Below are positions 24,217-51,677 of a stretch of DNA of 64,000 bases, one piece after another; the first letter of the stretch is position 1, and every line of letters starts with the position of its first letter. The DNA lies in the NCBI RefSeq assembly GCF_003019035.1, contig NZ_CP027448.1, one strand, 5' to 3'. Below the pieces are notes generated by a model. That model was not told the DNA's origin, ran no database searches, and saw only the letters and a program-made list of their open reading frames with translations. The translations under genes and the position numbers were made by a program. This stretch comes from Escherichia coli (GTDB lineage: Bacteria > Pseudomonadota > Gammaproteobacteria > Enterobacterales > Enterobacteriaceae).

Positions 24217-24582
24217 TCAGAGGCCAACGACGGCCATACCCACAGCAATAAATACAGAGATGATGGCAAAACCGGCCAGGAACTTGACGTTTTTGGTCAT
24301 CATGTACATGACAGCACCGACCAGAACTTCAGCCAGAACAACCCATTTAACAACACTGGAGTCCTTACCGAAGGTCGCCTTAACCGTGGTGTTACCGCTT
24401 GCCATCAGGTCCTGACCACTGCTACCGGCGGCCATCGCCAGCTGCGGGAAGAACATCATCAGAACAGCAGCCGGGATCACAGCGCGAGCCAGGCGAAGTA
24501 TATTCAGACGAGTGAATTTGGAAAAAAACGATTTCTTTTTGACGGGCGAAGAAGCACCCTGAACACTTAAAACGGCGTCCAT
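24217..24582 (-). CDS. traA: Propilin TraA (F-type pilin)
   Basis: 121 aa; long leader then mature pilin [70 protein letters not shown] matches remembered F pilin. Confidence 0.97.
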
Positions 24583-24615: not shown

Positions 24616-24843
24616 CTAAAGTTCTTTAAATGTTGACTCGCTCTCTTCGGTCACCTCCCTGAATATTTCTTCGTTATAGAAATCAGGAAACCGTTTCAGA
24701 TGATCTCTGAGACGGATCTGGACTTCTATCGTTTTACTTCTTCCACTACGATCTTTGGCCTTAATAAGTCGGTTATTTGTATCCTCATCGAGATACACCG
24801 AGACCGTTCTGCTTATACCGCCTCTCGCGTTACGCCTCCTCAC
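24616..24843 (-). CDS. traY: TraY (short R100-type, 75 aa, inferred GTG start)
   Basis: C-terminal RHH-like sequence ...RSGRSKTIEVQIRLRDHLKRFPDFYNEEIFRE...; ATG-extended ORF (to 24936) abuts traJ stop leaving no promoter space, so start placed at GTG 24843 preceded by GAGG. Confidence 0.7.
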   Translation of the reverse strand: MRRRNARGGISRTVSVYLDEDTNNRLIKAKDRSGRSKTIEVQIRLRDHLKRFPDFYNEEIFREVTEESESTFKEL

Positions 24844-24936
24844 TAAATTCACCTCTGTTTCCCGACTAATAAAATTATGATTGCACAGAAATCGGCGAAA
24901 AAAAACACGCCAAAATTGGCGTGTCTTATTTAACAT

Positions 24937-25623
24937 TTATTTAACACCATAAAATTCACGAATTATACTTAATAGCGAATCTATTTCTCCTTTATATATA
25001 CATGACACTCTGAATAAATCAAAGTGTTCAAAAAACTCTTTTATTTTCCGTTTAACTGGTTTAATTCGATCCTCAGATGCTCTGTCTGTAATACCCAATT
25101 CTCTGGCAATTGTTGCGTGACCAACACCCAGCATATAAAAAGAGAAAACAACCAATGTTCCTGGAGAAAGATCATTCCATATCGTTAATTGACCAGAAGT
25201 ATTTGTATTACTTACACTCTGATTTAACGCAAAAAATGGATAATCAGGAAACGGATTAATTTGCCATAAAACAACAGATTCGTCATTATAAAAAGAAACA
25301 TTCTCCATCCTTATCTGATAGATTTCGCCATGAAAATTAAAACGACGACAAAATGCAGAGCCATGTCCAAGAGCCTGGCATTCCAGTTCAAGTGATGAAA
25401 GAAAAATTTCAACCTGCAGACGTATATAACTCTCTCCGGATAAAGGTTTATCTTCTCTGGAAAAGAGTTCAATAAAAGCCCCATTGGCATAAAGGATTTT
25501 CCGGTTTTTGTTACGGACACAAACCGGAACGGGAGAATTTCTGTAGATATTCTGAACGTTAAGGATGTATTTATTTACAGATTGACTGTTTAGTGGCCTT
25601 TCTCTACGATCCAGCGCACACAT
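24937..25623 (-). CDS. traJ: TraJ transfer activator (start set to MCALDRR..., 228 aa)
   Basis: ORF 24937-25701; ATG 25623 has GGAGG 5 nt upstream; position between traM and traY. Sequence is not the F allele as I recall it. Confidence 0.75.
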
Positions 25624-25692
25624 AGGAACCTCCAGTAAGGATTCTATGGACAGTCGATGCAGGGAGTTACAGCTCCCTGCATCGGCGATTTT
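25618..25692 (+). ncRNA. finP: FinP antisense RNA (candidate), complementary to traJ RBS/start
   Basis: Plus strand opposite traJ leader shows imperfect stem-loop (25622-25648) then perfect hairpin GATGCAGGGAG-TTAC-AGCTCCCTGCATC (25656-25683) followed by T-rich tract: terminator-like, as expected for FinP. Ends approximate. Confidence 0.55.
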
Positions 25693-25812
25693 CAGTTTCA
25701 ATTTTTAACGTGGTATTAACCACATAATTAATATACTAATTATCTGACGTATTGTCATCTTTTTGAATCATAAAAATTCTTATATTTGAACCAACTCAAA
25801 CTTCATTTTCAT

Positions 25813-26196
25813 TTATTCATCATCATTTTTTGGGAAAAACCGGTCCATCTCAACAGACACTTTCTCTCTGATATCGTCAACCATACTGGCATATTCAAAC
25901 TTCGGGTTTCCGGAGACATGAGGACTGAGAGACTCAATACCTAAAATTTTCGCTACTGATGATTGTGTTTTTACAACGCATTCAAGAAGTAATTTATTAA
26001 ACTCAGTCTGATTAAATGCAGACTCTTTACGCTCCATCTGAGCGTCATATACACGGAGCCCTAATTCAAGAAGCATTGAAGCAGTTCCTGAAAGGCTTAT
26101 ATCTTTATCTCTTGCTCCCTCCTGACGACGCTTTTCAACAATCATGTTAATTTTTTCATGAACCTCATTACTGATATACAGATTTACTCTGGCCAT
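25813..26196 (-). CDS. traM: TraM relaxosome accessory protein
   Basis: 127 aa MARVNLYISNEVHEKINMIVEKRRQEGARDKD... closely matches remembered F TraM. Confidence 0.95.
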   Translation of the reverse strand: MARVNLYISNEVHEKINMIVEKRRQEGARDKDISLSGTASMLLELGLRVYDAQMERKESAFNQTEFNKLLLECVVKTQSSVAKILGIESLSPHVSGNPKFEYASMVDDIREKVSVEMDRFFPKNDDE

Positions 26197-44453: not shown

Positions 44454-46682
44454 TTATCTGACTACAATATTGATATCGTTTTCCGCAACAATCAGCATCA
44501 CGGCAGGTAAACCCTCCACACGCATTTTCTGGTGTAATTTTTTGATTAAATTATCATCTTCATTACTGGCTTTTGCGGAAAAGCCTTGTGGATGGGAGTG
44601 CCATTCGCCAACATAATCGACAACACGAGCGGTCAACTGGTGAACCCGTTCTAATGCTTCTTGTTGTCCCGCTTCTCCCCGGACAAAGGAGGCTGGAGAG
44701 GATTTACTGTCGATAGGTTCAGGGAGCACGTCAACCAGAATAATCGTTTTGTTCTTAAAATCTGTTATGCCAACAATTGCACCTCCTGTTTCATTAGGCA
44801 GTGCCTGTAAGCGGGTGTGCTGCAATTTTTGCGCTAAGCCCTGGTCATATTTAACAACCCATTCGCCAGAAATTATAGATACCACGGAATAGAGTTCAAT
44901 TTCATGTGCATCCATCGCGCCTGATATTTCATCAGATACCCAGATACACAATCGAGCATTTCCTTTGAGTGCAGTCTGGCGAAGTTGGCGTGAGAGGATA
45001 CCGGCATGAACATGAATACATTCACTGGACATACGTACAGAAATATCCCGACATCCACCACCGACCCAACGATCGCCATAATTGTGCTGTAGGTGAGTAC
45101 TTCCCCACTCACTGCTCAAAATTGCCCGATAGTATTGCCCCTCAATTGCATCAATTCGGCATTGTCTGTCTACATCCTCCATTAACATCACGCTAGACTG
45201 ACCCGATGGAGTCAGAAACAGGCTAACTATTCTGGGTATATCATCTTTTAACACTAGAGTCCTCGGCACCTCAAAGGTGGTACTGACATCCACAACTAAG
45301 TCTGCCTCATTCATTGCCTTAGCAATATCATCATCGTCATCAAGAATACTTTTATGGATCGCCTGAGGGAGGGGCTCATGCGGATAAATAGATTTGGCAA
45401 TATGCTGAATAATATGGGGTTTTGAGACTCCAATATGACAATCAAACCCAATATGGCGAGACAAATTATGTGGAAGAAGCCGATCTGGATCAATAAAAGT
45501 CCATGTCCCCCACCCCATTCGAATCCAAATATCAGCCAATGTACTACCAAGAGCGCCAACTCCAGCTAAAATACCTCGAAAAGCTGCACTCTCTGAATCA
45601 ACAGCAGATATGTCTCTCGCATGTGTGGCCTTCATAGCCGAACGTATTTCAACTGGTAAAAGCGGTAATTGTCGCCACTTGGTACTAATTGATCCGCCAA
45701 GAAGCCGTACGCGATGCTGTACTCCTCGCTCATTTTTTGGCGCCAGCATATCTAGTGCAGTGGCAAGTTCACCGAGTGAACTTTGCACAACATAGCCCAT
45801 CACATCCGTACGTTCTGTTTCTCCGTTTCTTAGACGGGGGATCCAAAGCAGGATAAGTAAGCCTTCTCCTTTACCAGACGTTGGGCGGATACCATCACTT
45901 GGTATTGCTTCATAAACAGCGTCAGTTAGTGGTTTTAGGAGCTCACTTCCCCATTCATTAAGTTGTTCTTCTAATTTTCCCAGATTATCCGGGTATGTAG
46001 CCACCGTAGAAACATCGACAGGAGGAACAGCAATAGTTAATAAGCGAAATGGCTTAACGCTTGAGGTATCTTGTTCTGGTACAGCCCTTAAAATAATCGG
46101 TCGCCCCTCACTGACCATCTGGAGACTGAGCTTATTGTCAGTCGCGTGATGATAATCGGGGTAATTGGCTGGCAAAATGAGCTGATAGGGACTCAAATAA
46201 AAAAGTTGCTCAAGTGGCTGATCTTCTCGATGTAGATGCAGTTCGGCCGATTCTCTAAGCCACCAAAAAATGCGCTCAAGGAATCTCTCGGGGGTCCAAC
46301 TGCGCTCAACTGCGCTCCAGGAGGCCTCATATAGGCAAAGAATTCGTGGTGAGCCAGGTTCTCCAGCATGCTGGTGAGAAAGAACAGGGAAATCTTTCCG
46401 CAATGCATGAACCAAGATAGGTATGCTTGATTTGGGATTGACCTCAATAGCCAATCGTTCTTTACGACGAATACGGGCTTGATTACCAGAAGCCACAGTC
46501 CCATCAGCAGCATCAATGATTAGATATTCCGAGCGGTTATCATTTATTTCAGAAAATCGTAATTCTCTGACTGTGACGTAAGGATGATTCTCGCATGCTT
46601 TAAGCAGCGAAATCGTTTGTGGATAAAGGCTATCGCGCCCCGATGAATCGAGGCGCTCACCCAATTCGAAATATTCGATCAT
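44454..46682 (-). CDS. Multidomain E2-like / E1-like (ThiF) / JAB-JAMM peptidase fusion protein (742 aa)
   Basis: HQH..10 aa..C (E2-like), GILAGVGALGSTLADIW...IDPD (ThiF Rossmann), EWHSHPQGFSAKASNEDD (JAMM HxH..S..D) read directly from the translation; ATGA overlap with upstream MBL gene. Confidence 0.75.
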   Translation of the reverse strand: MIEYFELGERLDSSGRDSLYPQTISLLKACENHPYVTVRELRFSEINDNRSEYLIIDAADGTVASGNQARIRRKERLAIEVNPKSSIPILVHALRKDFPVLSHQHAGEPGSPRILCLYEASWSAVERSWTPERFLERIFWWLRESAELHLHREDQPLEQLFYLSPYQLILPANYPDYHHATDNKLSLQMVSEGRPIILRAVPEQDTSSVKPFRLLTIAVPPVDVSTVATYPDNLGKLEEQLNEWGSELLKPLTDAVYEAIPSDGIRPTSGKGEGLLILLWIPRLRNGETERTDVMGYVVQSSLGELATALDMLAPKNERGVQHRVRLLGGSISTKWRQLPLLPVEIRSAMKATHARDISAVDSESAAFRGILAGVGALGSTLADIWIRMGWGTWTFIDPDRLLPHNLSRHIGFDCHIGVSKPHIIQHIAKSIYPHEPLPQAIHKSILDDDDDIAKAMNEADLVVDVSTTFEVPRTLVLKDDIPRIVSLFLTPSGQSSVMLMEDVDRQCRIDAIEGQYYRAILSSEWGSTHLQHNYGDRWVGGGCRDISVRMSSECIHVHAGILSRQLRQTALKGNARLCIWVSDEISGAMDAHEIELYSVVSIISGEWVVKYDQGLAQKLQHTRLQALPNETGGAIVGITDFKNKTIILVDVLPEPIDSKSSPASFVRGEAGQQEALERVHQLTARVVDYVGEWHSHPQGFSAKASNEDDNLIKKLHQKMRVEGLPAVMLIVAENDINIVVR

Positions 46683-47866
46683 TGGTTTGATACACCTGCC
46701 CTAGGAGCGGCGGCCGTAGCAGCACTTACCGCAGCTGAAACAGCACCAACAATAGCGGGTATTAACTTCCCGTCTCCAGCCACTTCAAATTCAAGGAACG
46801 CTGTATCTTTAAGATCCCCCGTACAGCTAAACCAACCATCAACACTGTCCAGAATATCCTCATACTCACGCTTAGCCCGGATGCACGGTGGATCATAATC
46901 ATCATCAAGTATCTGATTGCTACTCGATACAATTGTTGCCCCGGAACGAGCCTGACCTAAAGCATTACGGGCCGCATCACAAACTTCAGCATTCTCCCCC
47001 CATTGTGACCAGCTATCATAGGAAAGTGAATGCCATGAACAATGATGCGGTGTGAGGAGAAGATCATATTCTAGTGCCTCAGCATTGCTTTTGTAACGAT
47101 CCCATAATCGCTCCCAGATGAGAACTTCTGCGTCTCCACCTAATAGAAAGTGCATAGGATTACGGGAATATGCAGAGGGCAGTATTTTCATGTTCATGAT
47201 GATACTGGATTCGTTTTTAGAAAGAGCTTCTTCCAAATATTCATCATCTTCATGTGGTGCGGGCGCCAGAAGCTGTGCGGAGAACACTTCTGAAATTTGC
47301 CCGTCAATTCTGGTGAATGTATCTCCAGCTTTGATAAGAATGGCACTCAGATCATCTGTTTTGCCATTAATATCTTCACCCATGATAAGGATTCGATTAC
47401 CGCTAGATGCATAACCATGTTCCCGCCAGTATTTTACTCGGCGCCGTGCTTCTGTATTAAATGCCTGAGCATCTTCGCAAAGTGTGTGACTTTTGGAACG
47501 ACGCCGAAAAATCAATGGTGATGACCACAATTCTCGAATAATGATACGCTTTTCTGAACGTTTCACATCGTCATCTGGATAATCTTCAGGACGGCCCAGC
47601 CAGAAATGTTTACGCAGGCCACCGCAATGATCCTGATCGGGATGACTGAGCATAAAAACATCAATAAAGGGACGATCTTTTTCATCATACTTCAATCTGC
47701 TACGTAATGCCGAGGCAACATCAGGTGTGTCATCATTGGGGTTATCAGCAGCAGAGCGAATATGTACATCAATCAGAATGGATGTGCCCCGGGTGTCGGC
47801 CAAACGTACCAGTGTCATATCACCGTTGCCGACTTGGAAAAAAGTAATTTTGGCTGCCATCGACAT
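46679..47866 (-). CDS. Metallo-beta-lactamase-fold protein (395 aa) with Ala/Gly-rich C-terminal tail
   Basis: MBL-like motifs ...LIDVH..., SHPDQDHCGG, ...TPHHCSWH...; C-terminus ...AIVGAVSAAVSAATAAAPRAGVSNQ. Confidence 0.75.
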   Translation of the reverse strand: MSMAAKITFFQVGNGDMTLVRLADTRGTSILIDVHIRSAADNPNDDTPDVASALRSRLKYDEKDRPFIDVFMLSHPDQDHCGGLRKHFWLGRPEDYPDDDVKRSEKRIIIRELWSSPLIFRRRSKSHTLCEDAQAFNTEARRRVKYWREHGYASSGNRILIMGEDINGKTDDLSAILIKAGDTFTRIDGQISEVFSAQLLAPAPHEDDEYLEEALSKNESSIIMNMKILPSAYSRNPMHFLLGGDAEVLIWERLWDRYKSNAEALEYDLLLTPHHCSWHSLSYDSWSQWGENAEVCDAARNALGQARSGATIVSSSNQILDDDYDPPCIRAKREYEDILDSVDGWFSCTGDLKDTAFLEFEVAGDGKLIPAIVGAVSAAVSAATAAAPRAGVSNQ

Positions 47867-47994
47867 CTCCTTTAGGGATACGAAAGATTGAGGTTAAGAG
47901 CATCTATTGCTAAGATACATCTAGTAATTATACTAGTCTAGTAATTAGACGTATATTTTGGACTTAAATTGTAAGTACAGGAAATTATTGATAA
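47867..47994. promoter_or_regulatory. Divergent promoter/operator region with tandem direct repeats (TCTAGTAATTA x2)
   Basis: AT-rich intergenic region between divergent MBL operon and WYL gene; repeats at about 47918-47950. Confidence 0.4.
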
Positions 47995-48849
47995 ATGAGT
48001 GATAAAATGGTGAGAACTGGTCATTGGAGCCAAGAAAGACGGCTTGAATTCATCGATTTTCGCCTACTGTGGGAAGGTCGGCTTAACCGTGCAGATCTCA
48101 CGACATTTTTCAGAATTTCAGTTCCGCAAGCCTCATTAGATTTGGCAAAATATCAAGAAGTTGCGCCAAACAACATGGTGTATGATCGAACTCAGAAGGC
48201 TTACATTACGACTCCTGATTTCAAACCTGTTTTTACAAGCTTTGACAGTAATCATTACCTGAATGAACTACTTGGGCGAGAAAATGAAATAGTGGATCCT
48301 GATGATAGTTTCATTGGGTGGGTACCCCCGGTAGCCAGCCTTCCTCTCCCTGCCAGGAAAGTACAACCTGAAATATTGATTGATTTAATTCGAGCCATGC
48401 AAAGAAAACAGGCTTTGGTTGTTGATTATCGCTCAATGACTAATGAACCAGCAATTCGTACGCTATACCCAACAGCATTTGCACATGATGGGCATCGGTG
48501 GCATGTTCGTGCTTATTGTTTTAAGTCTACAATGTTTAAAGATTTTGTTCTTGGTAGGTTTTTTAAAATCGTTGAATTTGTTTCCCCACCGACATCAATT
48601 CCACAAGATGTGGACTGGAATACATTTATTGACGTGGTAATAGGTCCAAACCCTAACTACGATATGAATAAACGGCTATCTATTGAACATGATTATCAAA
48701 TGGTAAAAGGAGAAGCAAAAATCCACATACGTAAAGCGCAATTATATTATCTTAATCGTCGATTAAATTTGGATGTAAATAGCGATGGTTCAATAGATGA
48801 CAAACAGCAGATCATCATGCTCAGAATAGACGAGTCTAAAACCTATTAA
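47995..48849 (+). CDS. HTH-WYL domain transcriptional regulator (BrxR/CapW-like)
   Basis: 284 aa; central ...HDGHRWHVRAYCFKSTMFKDFVLGRFFKI... fits the WYL pattern; N-terminal HTH-like region. Confidence 0.7.
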   Translation: MSDKMVRTGHWSQERRLEFIDFRLLWEGRLNRADLTTFFRISVPQASLDLAKYQEVAPNNMVYDRTQKAYITTPDFKPVFTSFDSNHYLNELLGRENEIVDPDDSFIGWVPPVASLPLPARKVQPEILIDLIRAMQRKQALVVDYRSMTNEPAIRTLYPTAFAHDGHRWHVRAYCFKSTMFKDFVLGRFFKIVEFVSPPTSIPQDVDWNTFIDVVIGPNPNYDMNKRLSIEHDYQMVKGEAKIHIRKAQLYYLNRRLNLDVNSDGSIDDKQQIIMLRIDESKTY

Positions 48850-49426: not shown

Positions 49427-50746
49427 TTACTTTCTCTTATTTCCTGGGGTCGCGCCCCCAGTGAGCTTATTCAAAAGTTTGTCCACTGCCTGTATATCGT
49501 TTTCTACAGCGGCTTGTTCGTCATCAGTCAAAGGGATTTCCTGCATCAGCTTGAGTAGATTCTGGCGACCTTCCAAGTATTGTGCTTCAGATGAAGATTT
49601 TGGCATATAAAATGAGCATTTTGCACATGCCATCCGATGGGGGCATTGCTCAAAAAAGTCATAAGTACAGAAACCGTGTCCAAGATCATAATAACGCCAT
49701 GGCTTCCCGGATGCTACCAGCCCTTCAGCTATCGCGTCTTGATCAATGAGAACTGAAACCATGCGGCGATTACATTCAAAGTAACCAGCTTTATCCAGTG
49801 ATCCTGCCAACCTCGTCGGTGTAATTTCGACATAATGTCGGGTAGATTCAGGTGAAGAATGCCCCAACCATTTCTGTAGCTCAAAAATATCAAGTGGTTC
49901 CCTGGCGTTGTAAAGCTGACTGGCTATAGTGGCTCTTGCCCGATGGCTGGTGATTTTACCTCTGGCATCCTGCTCAGGTATACCAGCCTTTCTGCATAGC
50001 AAAGGGATTAGCGAATTATTAATATAACTACTGTGTACCCGTTTCCCCCTGTGCATGAACAAAAAACGGACGCTTTCACCTGTTTTAGAATCTTCCTGGA
50101 GGGGGTGGGGGTTACGAACAAGTTCCCATTGTTCGATATATTCCCCGATAATAGGGTCAACTGGCTTTGTGAATGCCGCGTAAGTCTTGCTAACGGGTAC
50201 ATCTATCAGACAGATACGGGATACATTATTTTCTTCTGGCTGTTGCCAGCGGATACACCCACACTGCATACGTAGAATTTCATCACGTCTGAGGCCTCCA
50301 AATAACCAGAGAACGCTGAGTGCTCTGACCATCTCCAGTGGATAAAAATAAGGATATGCAACACAGTTTGGTAAATCCGACTCCTGCAGGTTCTGTCCGG
50401 CGTGAAGTAATTTACACCACATATCATCGGCCACAATACGAGGCTCTGGTCCAACCAGGGAAGTCAAGCTACGCGGTGCCCTGAAAACTCTTTCTGGGCT
50501 GAATCGTACAGGTATCCATCCCCATTCCTGCAAGTCATGAAAGAAAGTTCTAATATGACCCAACATCCTGGCTCTCGCTGCAGGCATCATCATTTTGCCA
50601 CGACGGTCACGATACATGCCCCCAGGGGTTGCCCATTCACCAACTTTCATTCTACAAGCGGCGGTCACCCAGACGATCGCGGTGTCCCGTGTCCAATCAG
50701 ATGGTGACAGACAGGTTGGATAGCACTCAGCTAACCAGCTGACCAC
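49427..50746 (-). CDS. Tyrosine recombinase/integrase (439 aa)
   Basis: Catalytic signature residues: ...GGLRRDE..., ...SHRARAT..., ...LGHSSPESTRHYV... Confidence 0.85.
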   Translation of the reverse strand: MVSWLAECYPTCLSPSDWTRDTAIVWVTAACRMKVGEWATPGGMYRDRRGKMMMPAARARMLGHIRTFFHDLQEWGWIPVRFSPERVFRAPRSLTSLVGPEPRIVADDMWCKLLHAGQNLQESDLPNCVAYPYFYPLEMVRALSVLWLFGGLRRDEILRMQCGCIRWQQPEENNVSRICLIDVPVSKTYAAFTKPVDPIIGEYIEQWELVRNPHPLQEDSKTGESVRFLFMHRGKRVHSSYINNSLIPLLCRKAGIPEQDARGKITSHRARATIASQLYNAREPLDIFELQKWLGHSSPESTRHYVEITPTRLAGSLDKAGYFECNRRMVSVLIDQDAIAEGLVASGKPWRYYDLGHGFCTYDFFEQCPHRMACAKCSFYMPKSSSEAQYLEGRQNLLKLMQEIPLTDDEQAAVENDIQAVDKLLNKLTGGATPGNKRK

Positions 50747-51677
50747 ACTTTAGCAAAACGTACCAACCGGACAAAATAGATGAAGGGCGAAGTACTGAGG
50801 TAGCACGCCACCGTTTGCACCATACCAGCCATTTAGTTGGTACATCAGCTGTTGCATTATATTCGCGGGGAGGACGGCGACGTTGTGTTATTCGGTAATC
50901 AACCCCTTCCTCAATAGTCCCTGATGCAGCCAGTATACGCGATAGAGTAGCTGAGGCTTCCCGGAGGGAATCCGGGCACGTTGCAGCAATCTGTTGCAAC
51001 GTGGTCACGGTGATATGGTCTAGTTGAGCATCCCTTTGCAGAAGCATTGCCATACACATGGCATTTCTGATGCCGTTGTTCCGACTATCACGAGGCACAT
51101 ATCCCAGAACCTGCATCATATTGTCAAGCTGGCTGACGGCAAAATCGGTGCTCTGTCGGCCAAAAACCTTAAGACAGAGCCGATATTGATAGAATATGCC
51201 ACAGTGTTCCAGCCGCTCAAACCCACATAGCAACCATGCTAACGCTATAACATATTGCCGACAGTTGCCGCTGGCTCCAAACCGTCGACGAAATTCCCCT
51301 TCGCTGTTGCAAATAACTTCTAACCACTCTTCTTGTGTCCAGGCCCAGTATGTTTTCCGGATGCGCTGCATCTCTAGGACTATATCGTGAATAGATGAAT
51401 TGTAGGGGGCCTTGGCCGCATGCATTTTTGTTAGCGTGTCGCGTAGTGGTAAAAGAAGGCGGGAAAGCCGTTTTTGTATATCAGGTGACCAGTTTTTACC
51501 TCCTTGCTGGAAGTGGTCGACCAATGTATCCAGTGCCGCAAGCTCGCTTTCAGAGATCTCCGATCGGGTATCCCAAAGTAGGGCAGGAAGACTGAGTGAT
51601 GTTGTCGGACAAGGCGCTGTATGTTCAGATTGCATCATGGAGAAGGATCCTGCTGTTGTAGTACAGTAAGGCGGCAA
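50727..51677 (-). CDS. Recombinase-operon middle gene (316 aa), divergent/uncertain
   Basis: Overlaps both neighbours (translational coupling); no clear R-H-R-Y motifs seen by eye. Confidence 0.55.
   Translation of the reverse strand: MPPYCTTTAGSFSMMQSEHTAPCPTTSLSLPALLWDTRSEISESELAALDTLVDHFQQGGKNWSPDIQKRLSRLLLPLRDTLTKMHAAKAPYNSSIHDIVLEMQRIRKTYWAWTQEEWLEVICNSEGEFRRRFGASGNCRQYVIALAWLLCGFERLEHCGIFYQYRLCLKVFGRQSTDFAVSQLDNMMQVLGYVPRDSRNNGIRNAMCMAMLLQRDAQLDHITVTTLQQIAATCPDSLREASATLSRILAASGTIEEGVDYRITQRRRPPREYNATADVPTKWLVWCKRWRATSVLRPSSILSGWYVLLKCGQLVS

Follow-up and report, generated by a model that had tools for sequence, protein, structure and literature searches.

The traJ–finP–traY regulatory region of an Escherichia coli F-like plasmid is of the R1/pSLT type and encodes a short TraY with a probable GTG start

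Introduction

The diversity of TraJ and FinP alleles, the short TraY with a single ribbon-helix-helix (RHH) found in non-F plasmids and the use of non-ATG start codons for traY have all been described since the 1980s, and allele specificity is known to be set by the sequence of the FinP loops (Finlay et al. 1986; Koraimann et al. 1991). The anatomy of the PY promoter, from which traY is transcribed, was mapped experimentally for the R1 subgroup in 2020 (Bischof et al. 2020, PMC7303359). In R1, the ArcA-P site (abs) has the sequence TGTTAAGTAAATGTTAA and spans −76 to −60, the TraJ binding site (jbs) is the dyad CGCCAATTTTGGCG at −51 to −38, which has been footprinted and verified by mutation, and the promoter itself consists of a poor TTTTTT −35 element combined with an extended −10, as established by DNase footprints and promoter mutagenesis (PMC7303359).

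TraJ proteins of the R1 and pSLT subgroups are 73% identical and functionally exchangeable, whereas those of R1 and F are only about 18% identical and are not exchangeable; the R1 site CGCCAATTTTGGCG is activated by the TraJ of R1 and of pSLT, but not by the TraJ of F (PMC7303359). The R1 subgroup of MOBF12A activators is attributed to Koraimann 2018, as cited in the same work (PMC7303359). The TraY of R1 has been described as a dimer of single-RHH subunits (PMC12117103), while that of F is a monomer of 131–133 residues containing two RHH units in tandem.

Here we describe the traJ–traY region of an E. coli plasmid, located within a stretch of 64,000 nucleotides (contig NZ_CP027448.1 of assembly GCF_003019035.1) that is referred to as the window. 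An earlier, sequence-only reading of this region had proposed a non-F traJ allele and a short, R100-type traY with a GTG start. The region almost certainly represents the R1-subgroup form of the regulatory core that is standard in F-like conjugative plasmids (MOBF12 group A), and the earlier reading is correct apart from the name of the allele, which is of the R1/pSLT type and not of the F or R100 type.

Materials and methods

NC_002483.1 served as the F reference and NC_002134 as the R100 reference. The comparison with R1 (KY749247) was indirect, by way of its published sites (PMC7303359) and of the R1-like plasmids L012 and L013. Eleven relatives of the allele family, pSLT included, were aligned for the comparison of traY starts, and PGAP annotations were compared in plasmids 99.4–99.7% identical over a 1261-nt query.

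Results

Organisation of the locus

The region forms the head of an F-like transfer operon on the minus strand, in the order traM, traJ leader with the antisense finP gene, traJ, a 93-nt spacer, traY and traA, with traL, traE and traK as the genes after traA. This order (traM-finP/traJ-PY-traY-traA) is shared with F, as are the FinP stems and the regulatory logic. The genes are:

25813–26196, minus strand: traM, the upstream neighbour, 127 aa, 87–89% identical to the TraM of F and R100 (87% for F)
24937–25623, minus strand: traJ, 228 aa plus stop, ATG start, activator of the R1 subgroup with an N-terminal PAS fold
24616–24843, minus strand: traY, 75 aa plus stop, GTG start (24843–24841), R1/pSLT-type TraY with a single RHH
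24217–24582, minus strand: traA, propilin, 121 aa, the next gene of the tra operon, 97.5% identical to the TraA of F

The traM gene is annotated as such in the near-identical plasmids. Elsewhere the window has the usual make-up of an F-like plasmid: besides the tra operon and oriT there is a leading region that carries ssb, psiB, hok and an antirestriction gene, and there are genes for partition and replication as well as ccdB. The finO gene is not within the window. The 1261-nt region is matched by 3553 PLSDB records, in 1648 of which at least 80% of it is covered.

PY promoter elements between traJ and traY

The stretch between the end of traJ and the start of traY contains counterparts of the elements mapped in R1, as follows:

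24930–24946, minus strand: putative ArcA-P site (abs), TGTTAAATAAATGTTAA (TGTTAA-ATAAA-TGTTAA), by homology to R1
24908–24921, minus strand: TraJ binding site (jbs), assigned by identity to R1, dyad directly 5′ of the T-run
24898–24924, minus strand: terminator-like hairpin, ACACGCCAAUUUUGGCGUGU followed by U8, directly after traJ
24865–24887, minus strand: PY core, with the extended −10 region TGTGCAATCATAAT at 24887–24874 and a start that would lie near 24870
24849–24856, minus strand: traY Shine-Dalgarno sequence, AGAGGTGA, 5 nt (AATTT) before the GTG
24844–24936, minus strand: non-coding traJ–traY spacer, from which a mechanical ORF call reads 31 extra TraY codons (MLNKTRQ...)

The jbs dyad, CGCCAATTTTGGCG, is identical to that of R1. 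The two ArcA boxes (TGTTAA-N5-TGTTAA) are at the same distance as in R1 and are likewise combined with a T-run −35; the abs as a whole differs from the published R1 abs by one base, A for G, in the spacer between the boxes. The position of the PY start near 24870 is counted from the jbs at −51 to −38 in R1, and is thus an estimate by analogy; over the PY core stretch, the alignment with the R1-like loci L012 and L013 has no gaps. Relative to pSLT, in which the half-sites of the jbs are almost the same, the spacer contains one insertion and one deletion.

The stem of the hairpin contains the jbs, and the T8 run that follows it (24905–24898) is the non-canonical −35 element of PY. A terminator-like site was called at 24905–24924, with a predicted RNA fold of −17.1 kcal/mol, and hairpin and U-run may, judging from their sequence, also serve as the traJ terminator. 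The corresponding position in F, in R100 and in two further TraJ subgroups is taken up by another dyad, again with T-rich sequence behind it. A weak Rfam hit to the Bacteroidetes FopS RNA (24896–24959, 32 bits against a gathering score of 56) was rejected, reflecting only the post-traJ hairpin and U-run.

A consensus promoter scan of the region picked up promoters for traJ and finP and missed PY, as is expected from the TTTTTT −35 element of PY and its dependence on activators.

Start codon of traY

A mechanical ORF call extends traY to an ATG at 24936–24934, directly after the traJ stop codon TAA (24939–24937), giving a frame of 106 codons (24616–24936). The sequence-only reading had observed that such an extended ORF would abut the traJ stop and leave no room for the traY promoter, and had inferred a GTG start. 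Both observations hold: the ATG is on the base after the TAA, and the 93 nt before the GTG contain the PY elements.

The GTG start at 24843–24841 is well supported by comparison with the relatives. Its Shine-Dalgarno sequence is invariant in all 11 aligned family members, and PGAP annotates the same 228-nt, GTG-started gene in near-identical plasmids. The 75 codons are intact in the eleven relatives, with 92–100% amino-acid identity, and are under purifying selection, with 27 synonymous and 6 non-synonymous codon changes relative to pSLT; the 31-codon extension has 3 synonymous and 12 non-synonymous changes in the same comparison, a non-coding pattern.

The main alternative is a 106-aa, ATG-initiated TraY whose translation would begin right behind the traJ stop; the original pSLT record annotates the ATG-extended ORF as traY in this way. 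An ATG followed by an open frame is present in L002, L009 and pSLT as well as in the window (in pSLT it also abuts traJ), and databases list the long sequence as TraY on 85 contigs. In eight of the eleven relatives, however, the extension is broken. L001, which is 99.7% identical over the region, has GTG in place of the ATG; L010, L011, L012, L013 and L014 have a TGA codon immediately before the traY GTG; the frame is shifted by an extra T in the T-run of L008 and by a missing T in L011; and L015 has an in-frame stop within the extension. The ORF is open in the window because the codon before the GTG is TTA, as opposed to TGA in the R1-like plasmids. A conserved, full-length TraY starting at ATG, which the sequence-only reading had named as the finding that would count against it, was therefore not what the alignment returned, the extension being kept in only three of the eleven relatives.

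Further evidence argues against the 106-aa protein. The extension is made up of regulatory elements, namely the ArcA boxes, the TraJ dyad and the −35 and −10 of PY, and its ATG, like the traJ stop codon, falls within the abs. The ATG at 24936 has no Shine-Dalgarno sequence in front of it, and in the long form the Pfam TraY domain is not reached until residue 45, so that the domain gains nothing from the extra codons. The open frame in itself was rejected as evidence of coding by a shuffle test, in which 8.7% of shuffles of the 93-nt spacer had no in-frame stop, and by the pattern in the relatives. The 75-aa form, in addition, is found on at least 1000 contigs and is exactly the Swiss-Prot entry TRAY2_ECOLX, which may be the type II allele of ColB4-K98 (compare Finlay et al. 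1986). Since the ATG belongs to the second ArcA box, approximately 66 nt upstream of the probable PY start, the 106-aa ORF is best regarded as an annotation artefact, and a 106-aa TraY is highly improbable.

A start at the GTG at 24852–24850, three codons upstream, would give a TraY of 78 aa, and this codon is in frame and within the predicted PY transcript. It belongs, however, to the Shine-Dalgarno sequence AGAGGTGA and has none of its own, and in L010–L014 it is cut off from the TraY frame by a TGA without any change in TraY, making this start very improbable as well. The GTG at 24843–24841 is accordingly the start used in what follows.

TraJ allele

The sequence-only reading took the TraJ of this region for a non-F allele, and the alignments bear this out, with 29.3% identity to the TraJ of F. 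Identity to the TraJ of pSLT, also of 228 aa, is 73.7%, similar to the 73% reported between R1 and pSLT, and identity to the common E. coli and Klebsiella plasmid alleles sampled is 96–100%. In the R1-like L012 and L013, whose abs is that published for R1, TraJ is 98.7% identical to that of the window. Residues 23–122 match the Pfam PAS domain (E 4.7e-17), and residues 4–128 align to the solved N-terminal domain of pSLT TraJ (4EW7; E 9e-66).

The allele can, on this comparison, be assigned to the R1 subgroup, with pSLT representing a sister subgroup; the assignment draws on the identical jbs upstream of the PY −35, the 73–74% identity to pSLT TraJ together with the low identity to that of F, the PAS fold, and the R1-like relatives with an abs matching R1. 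pSLT thus belongs to another TraJ subgroup, although its TraJ activates the PY of R1.

None of the NCBIfam TraJ models (F, R100 and other types) was passed by the TraJ of the window, whose best score was 25.7 bits against a cut-off of 349. The TraJ of pSLT, which is a proven TraJ, likewise fails these models (40.8 bits), and the model set therefore has a gap, with the R1/pSLT subgroup uncovered. This explains why PGAP, which annotates the same 687-nt traJ gene in the plasmids 99.4–99.7% identical over the query, names the product ‘PAS domain-containing protein’.

The start of traJ is the ATG at 25623, which is preceded by GGAGG. The upper boundary of 25701 given in the sequence-only reading has to be discarded, as a mechanical ORF call simply begins with a TTG there and reads across the traJ leader and finP.

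traJ leader and FinP

Upstream of traJ, the leader and the antisense gene overlap as follows:

25730–25758, minus strand: predicted traJ promoter, ATGACA-17-TATATT, 10 of 12 matches in the consensus scan
25618–25725, minus strand: traJ mRNA leader (5′ UTR; Rfam RF00243), the target of FinP, including the GGAGG ribosome-binding site
25617–25692, plus strand: finP antisense RNA gene (Rfam RF00107), two stem-loops and a U-tail
25582–25610, plus strand: predicted finP promoter, TTGACT-17-TACGAT, 9 of 12 matches in the consensus scan

Both RNAs are matched over their full length, the leader with 110.9 bits (gathering score 50, E 1.6e-19) and FinP with 94.5 bits (gathering score 45, E 3.9e-19; model positions 1–76 of 76). 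The predicted traJ promoter is just upstream of the Rfam start of the leader at 25725. The predicted finP promoter is located within the first traJ codons, its −10 ending 7 nt before the start of the FinP model, and a GATC at 25608 overlaps this −10. FinP is antisense to the traJ leader and overlaps both the GGAGG ribosome-binding site and the traJ ATG.

FinP is predicted to fold into two hairpins (−39.2 kcal/mol), with a terminator-like site at 25653–25686. The loop region of stem-loop I is complementary to the region of the traJ ribosome-binding site, and stem-loop II is followed by the U-tail. The stems are conserved among the alleles compared and the loops are variable:

Window: loop I CCAGUAAGG, loop II UUACAG
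R1-like loci: loop I CCGUUAAGG, loop II UUCAGAC
pSLT: loop I CCUCAAAGG, loop II UGACAG
F: loop I CCUCACAAAGG, loop II UUCACGU
R100: loop I CCUCUCAAAGG, loop II GUCGCU

Both loops of the window differ from those of F, as do those of the window from the loops of pSLT and of the R1-like loci. Among 72,556 plasmid records, only 5 contain the 121-nt leader in exactly this form. At position 25636, in loop I, the window has U where its closest relatives have C; complementarity between FinP and the leader is unaffected by this change, since sense and antisense RNA are read from the same DNA.

These loops bear on the proposal, also made in the sequence-only reading, that regulation is allele-specific and distinct from that of F. 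Such control would follow from the differing FinP loops together with an R1-type TraJ site, that is the dyad CGCCAATTTTGGCG, which the TraJ of F does not activate in R1, and the proposal is borne out to that extent.

TraY allele

TraY was expected from the first reading to be short and to lack an ATG start, and it is indeed a protein of 75 aa with one Pfam TraY domain (PF05509, E 3.3e-24), of the same length and single-RHH architecture as the TraY of R1. It is 96% identical to the TraY of R1-like plasmids, L012 and L013 included, and 92% identical to that of pSLT. The equivalog NF010302 (R1/pSLT-type TraY, 75 aa) is matched over positions 1–75 of 75 with 178 bits against a cut-off of 147, and is also passed by the TraY of pSLT and of L012.

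The TraY of F, the start of which is likewise non-ATG (annotated as GTG), is different in architecture, and identity to it is 48%, in the second repeat only. Consistent with this, the model for the tandem double-RHH protein of F (NF010303, 131 aa; cut-off 232) gives 66.1 bits for the window, which matches only its second half, positions 69–131, as compared with 301.7 bits for the TraY of F.

The label ‘R100-type’ given to traY in the sequence-only reading stands for length and architecture (75 aa with a non-ATG start in both) but not for sequence, for which identity is 49% and the R100-type model NF010300 (75 aa) returns 100.1 bits, below its cut-off of 114 and below the 167.5 bits of R100 TraY itself. 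The sequence MRRRNARGG..., with which the TraY of the window begins, is not that of the R100 TraY, since the 75-aa protein in the R100 record is another one and starts at TTG. That the locus carries the traJ, traY and finP alleles of R100, and so would cross-react with R100 regulation, has next to no probability and is already refuted by the alignments: beyond the equal length of TraY and the non-ATG starts (TTG in R100, GTG in the window), TraY differs as above, TraJ is only 27.7% identical and scores 17.3 bits with the R100-type TraJ model (cut-off 442), FinP loop II is different, and the dyad between traJ and traY bears no relation to that of R100, GGTGACATTATGTCACC.

Discussion

The sequence comparisons establish which genes and RNAs are present, how the alleles are related, that the ATG extension is not conserved and that the TraJ site is that of R1. 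The regulation of this region as an R1-subgroup system can be outlined by analogy, with protein binding, the transcription start, counter-silencing of H-NS, the action of FinP and the N-terminus of TraY carried over from what has been established for R1, pSLT and F. The traJ mRNA would be transcribed from its own promoter, and the two loops of FinP would pair with the traJ leader, cover the ribosome-binding site and hold TraJ at a low level; FinO would stabilise FinP. Once accumulated, TraJ, made up of the PAS domain and a C-terminal DNA-binding part, would bind the dyad at 24921–24908, with ArcA-P at the two TGTTAA boxes (24946–24930) adjoining the bound TraJ. Together, TraJ and ArcA-P would counteract H-NS and activate PY, a weak promoter with a T-run −35, from which transcripts would start near 24870.

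As the first cistron of the PY transcript, traY would then be translated from the weak GTG at 24843, behind the Shine-Dalgarno sequence AGAGGTGA, and the 75-aa, single-RHH TraY would act as a dimer at oriT and at PY.

Two departures from this scheme can be envisaged, and it is very unlikely that either applies. Where transcription from the traJ or traM promoter continues past the post-traJ hairpin, the read-through RNA could be translated from the ATG at 24936 into an extended TraY, an isoform that could be independent of PY; this could concern only those plasmids that keep the ATG frame open (this one, L002, L009 and pSLT), which are a minority. Alternatively, the base at 25636 could shift the cross-reactivity of FinP between co-resident F-like plasmids.

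The R1-subgroup region described here is ordinary and present in thousands of sequenced plasmids, and what was found matches the already known biology of MOBF12A plasmids, so that it carries little weight as a discovery. Its practical value is for annotation: the 106-aa ‘TraY’ of some records, for example the original pSLT record, over-extends across the promoter, and PGAP labels the master activator of conjugation, in the records inspected, only as a protein containing a PAS domain.

The dyad and T-rich stretch downstream of traJ

All TraJ subgroups examined carry a dyad of their own followed by a T-rich stretch, located between the traJ stop codon and the tra-operon promoter PY. The same arrangement is found at the same position in R100 (L004), F (L005) and two further TraJ subgroups, L016 and L018, and in the window it lies at:

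24898-24924, (-) strand, dyad followed by T-rich stretch

In R1, TraJ binds to the dyad, and the T-run serves as the -35 element (PMC7303359). Transcribed into RNA, the dyad and T-rich stretch resemble an intrinsic terminator for traJ, and a putative dual role is plausible, in which the same element would act as the TraJ site and -35 region of PY and as the traJ terminator.

Annotation of traJ and of other ORFs

TraJ of the R1/pSLT subgroup, including that encoded by the window traJ (24937-25623, (-) strand), scores below the cut-off of all five NCBIfam TraJ models, and pSLT TraJ, which is experimentally proven, likewise falls below the cut-off of these models. The models miss this subgroup, and in the records inspected PGAP therefore names the R1-subgroup traJ gene 'PAS domain-containing protein'.

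Elsewhere in the window, a cluster occupies 44454-48849, with the leading-region genes to one side and a tyrosine recombinase to the other, and may represent an accessory or defence module.

ORFs of the cluster, with their annotation in a 98%-identical plasmid
44454-46682, (-) strand, 742-aa ORF, ThiF family adenylyltransferase
46679-47866, (-) strand, 395-aa ORF overlapping the 742-aa ORF, hypothetical protein
47995-48849, (+) strand, divergent 284-aa ORF, WYL domain-containing protein

At 49427-51677 on the (-) strand, adjoining 439-aa and 316-aa ORFs overlap by 20 nt, whereas a related plasmid has a single 2211-nt tyrosine recombinase gene at this place; the pair may represent one gene split by a frameshift.

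The traJ leader and FinP alleles

A GATC (Dam) site at 25608 on the (+) strand falls within traJ codons 5-6 and overlaps the -10 element (TACGAT) of the predicted finP promoter; finP transcription in pSLT is reportedly affected by Dam methylation.

The traJ leader is deleted in the related locus L014 (NZ_CP009860.1 pECO-824, about 560-660), where '...aaaaatcgccg' is joined directly to ATGAGAGAAAGG; this locus lacks the two stem-loops of FinP as well as the traJ RBS and initial codons. L014 TraJ shares 68.6% identity with the window TraJ and differs in its C-terminal third, and the dyad after traJ differs too. L014 traJ could be a FinP-less or inactive variant.

In FinP loop I, the window carries U at 25636 (+) in place of the C present in its closest relatives, L002 and L008, and an exact match to its 121-nt finP/traJ leader is present in just 5 of 72,556 PLSDB records. 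L009 encodes a TraJ 99.6% identical to that of the window, yet its FinP loops are R1-like; this pairing of near-window TraJ with R1-like loops suggests that the alleles of finP and of traJ recombine independently of each other.
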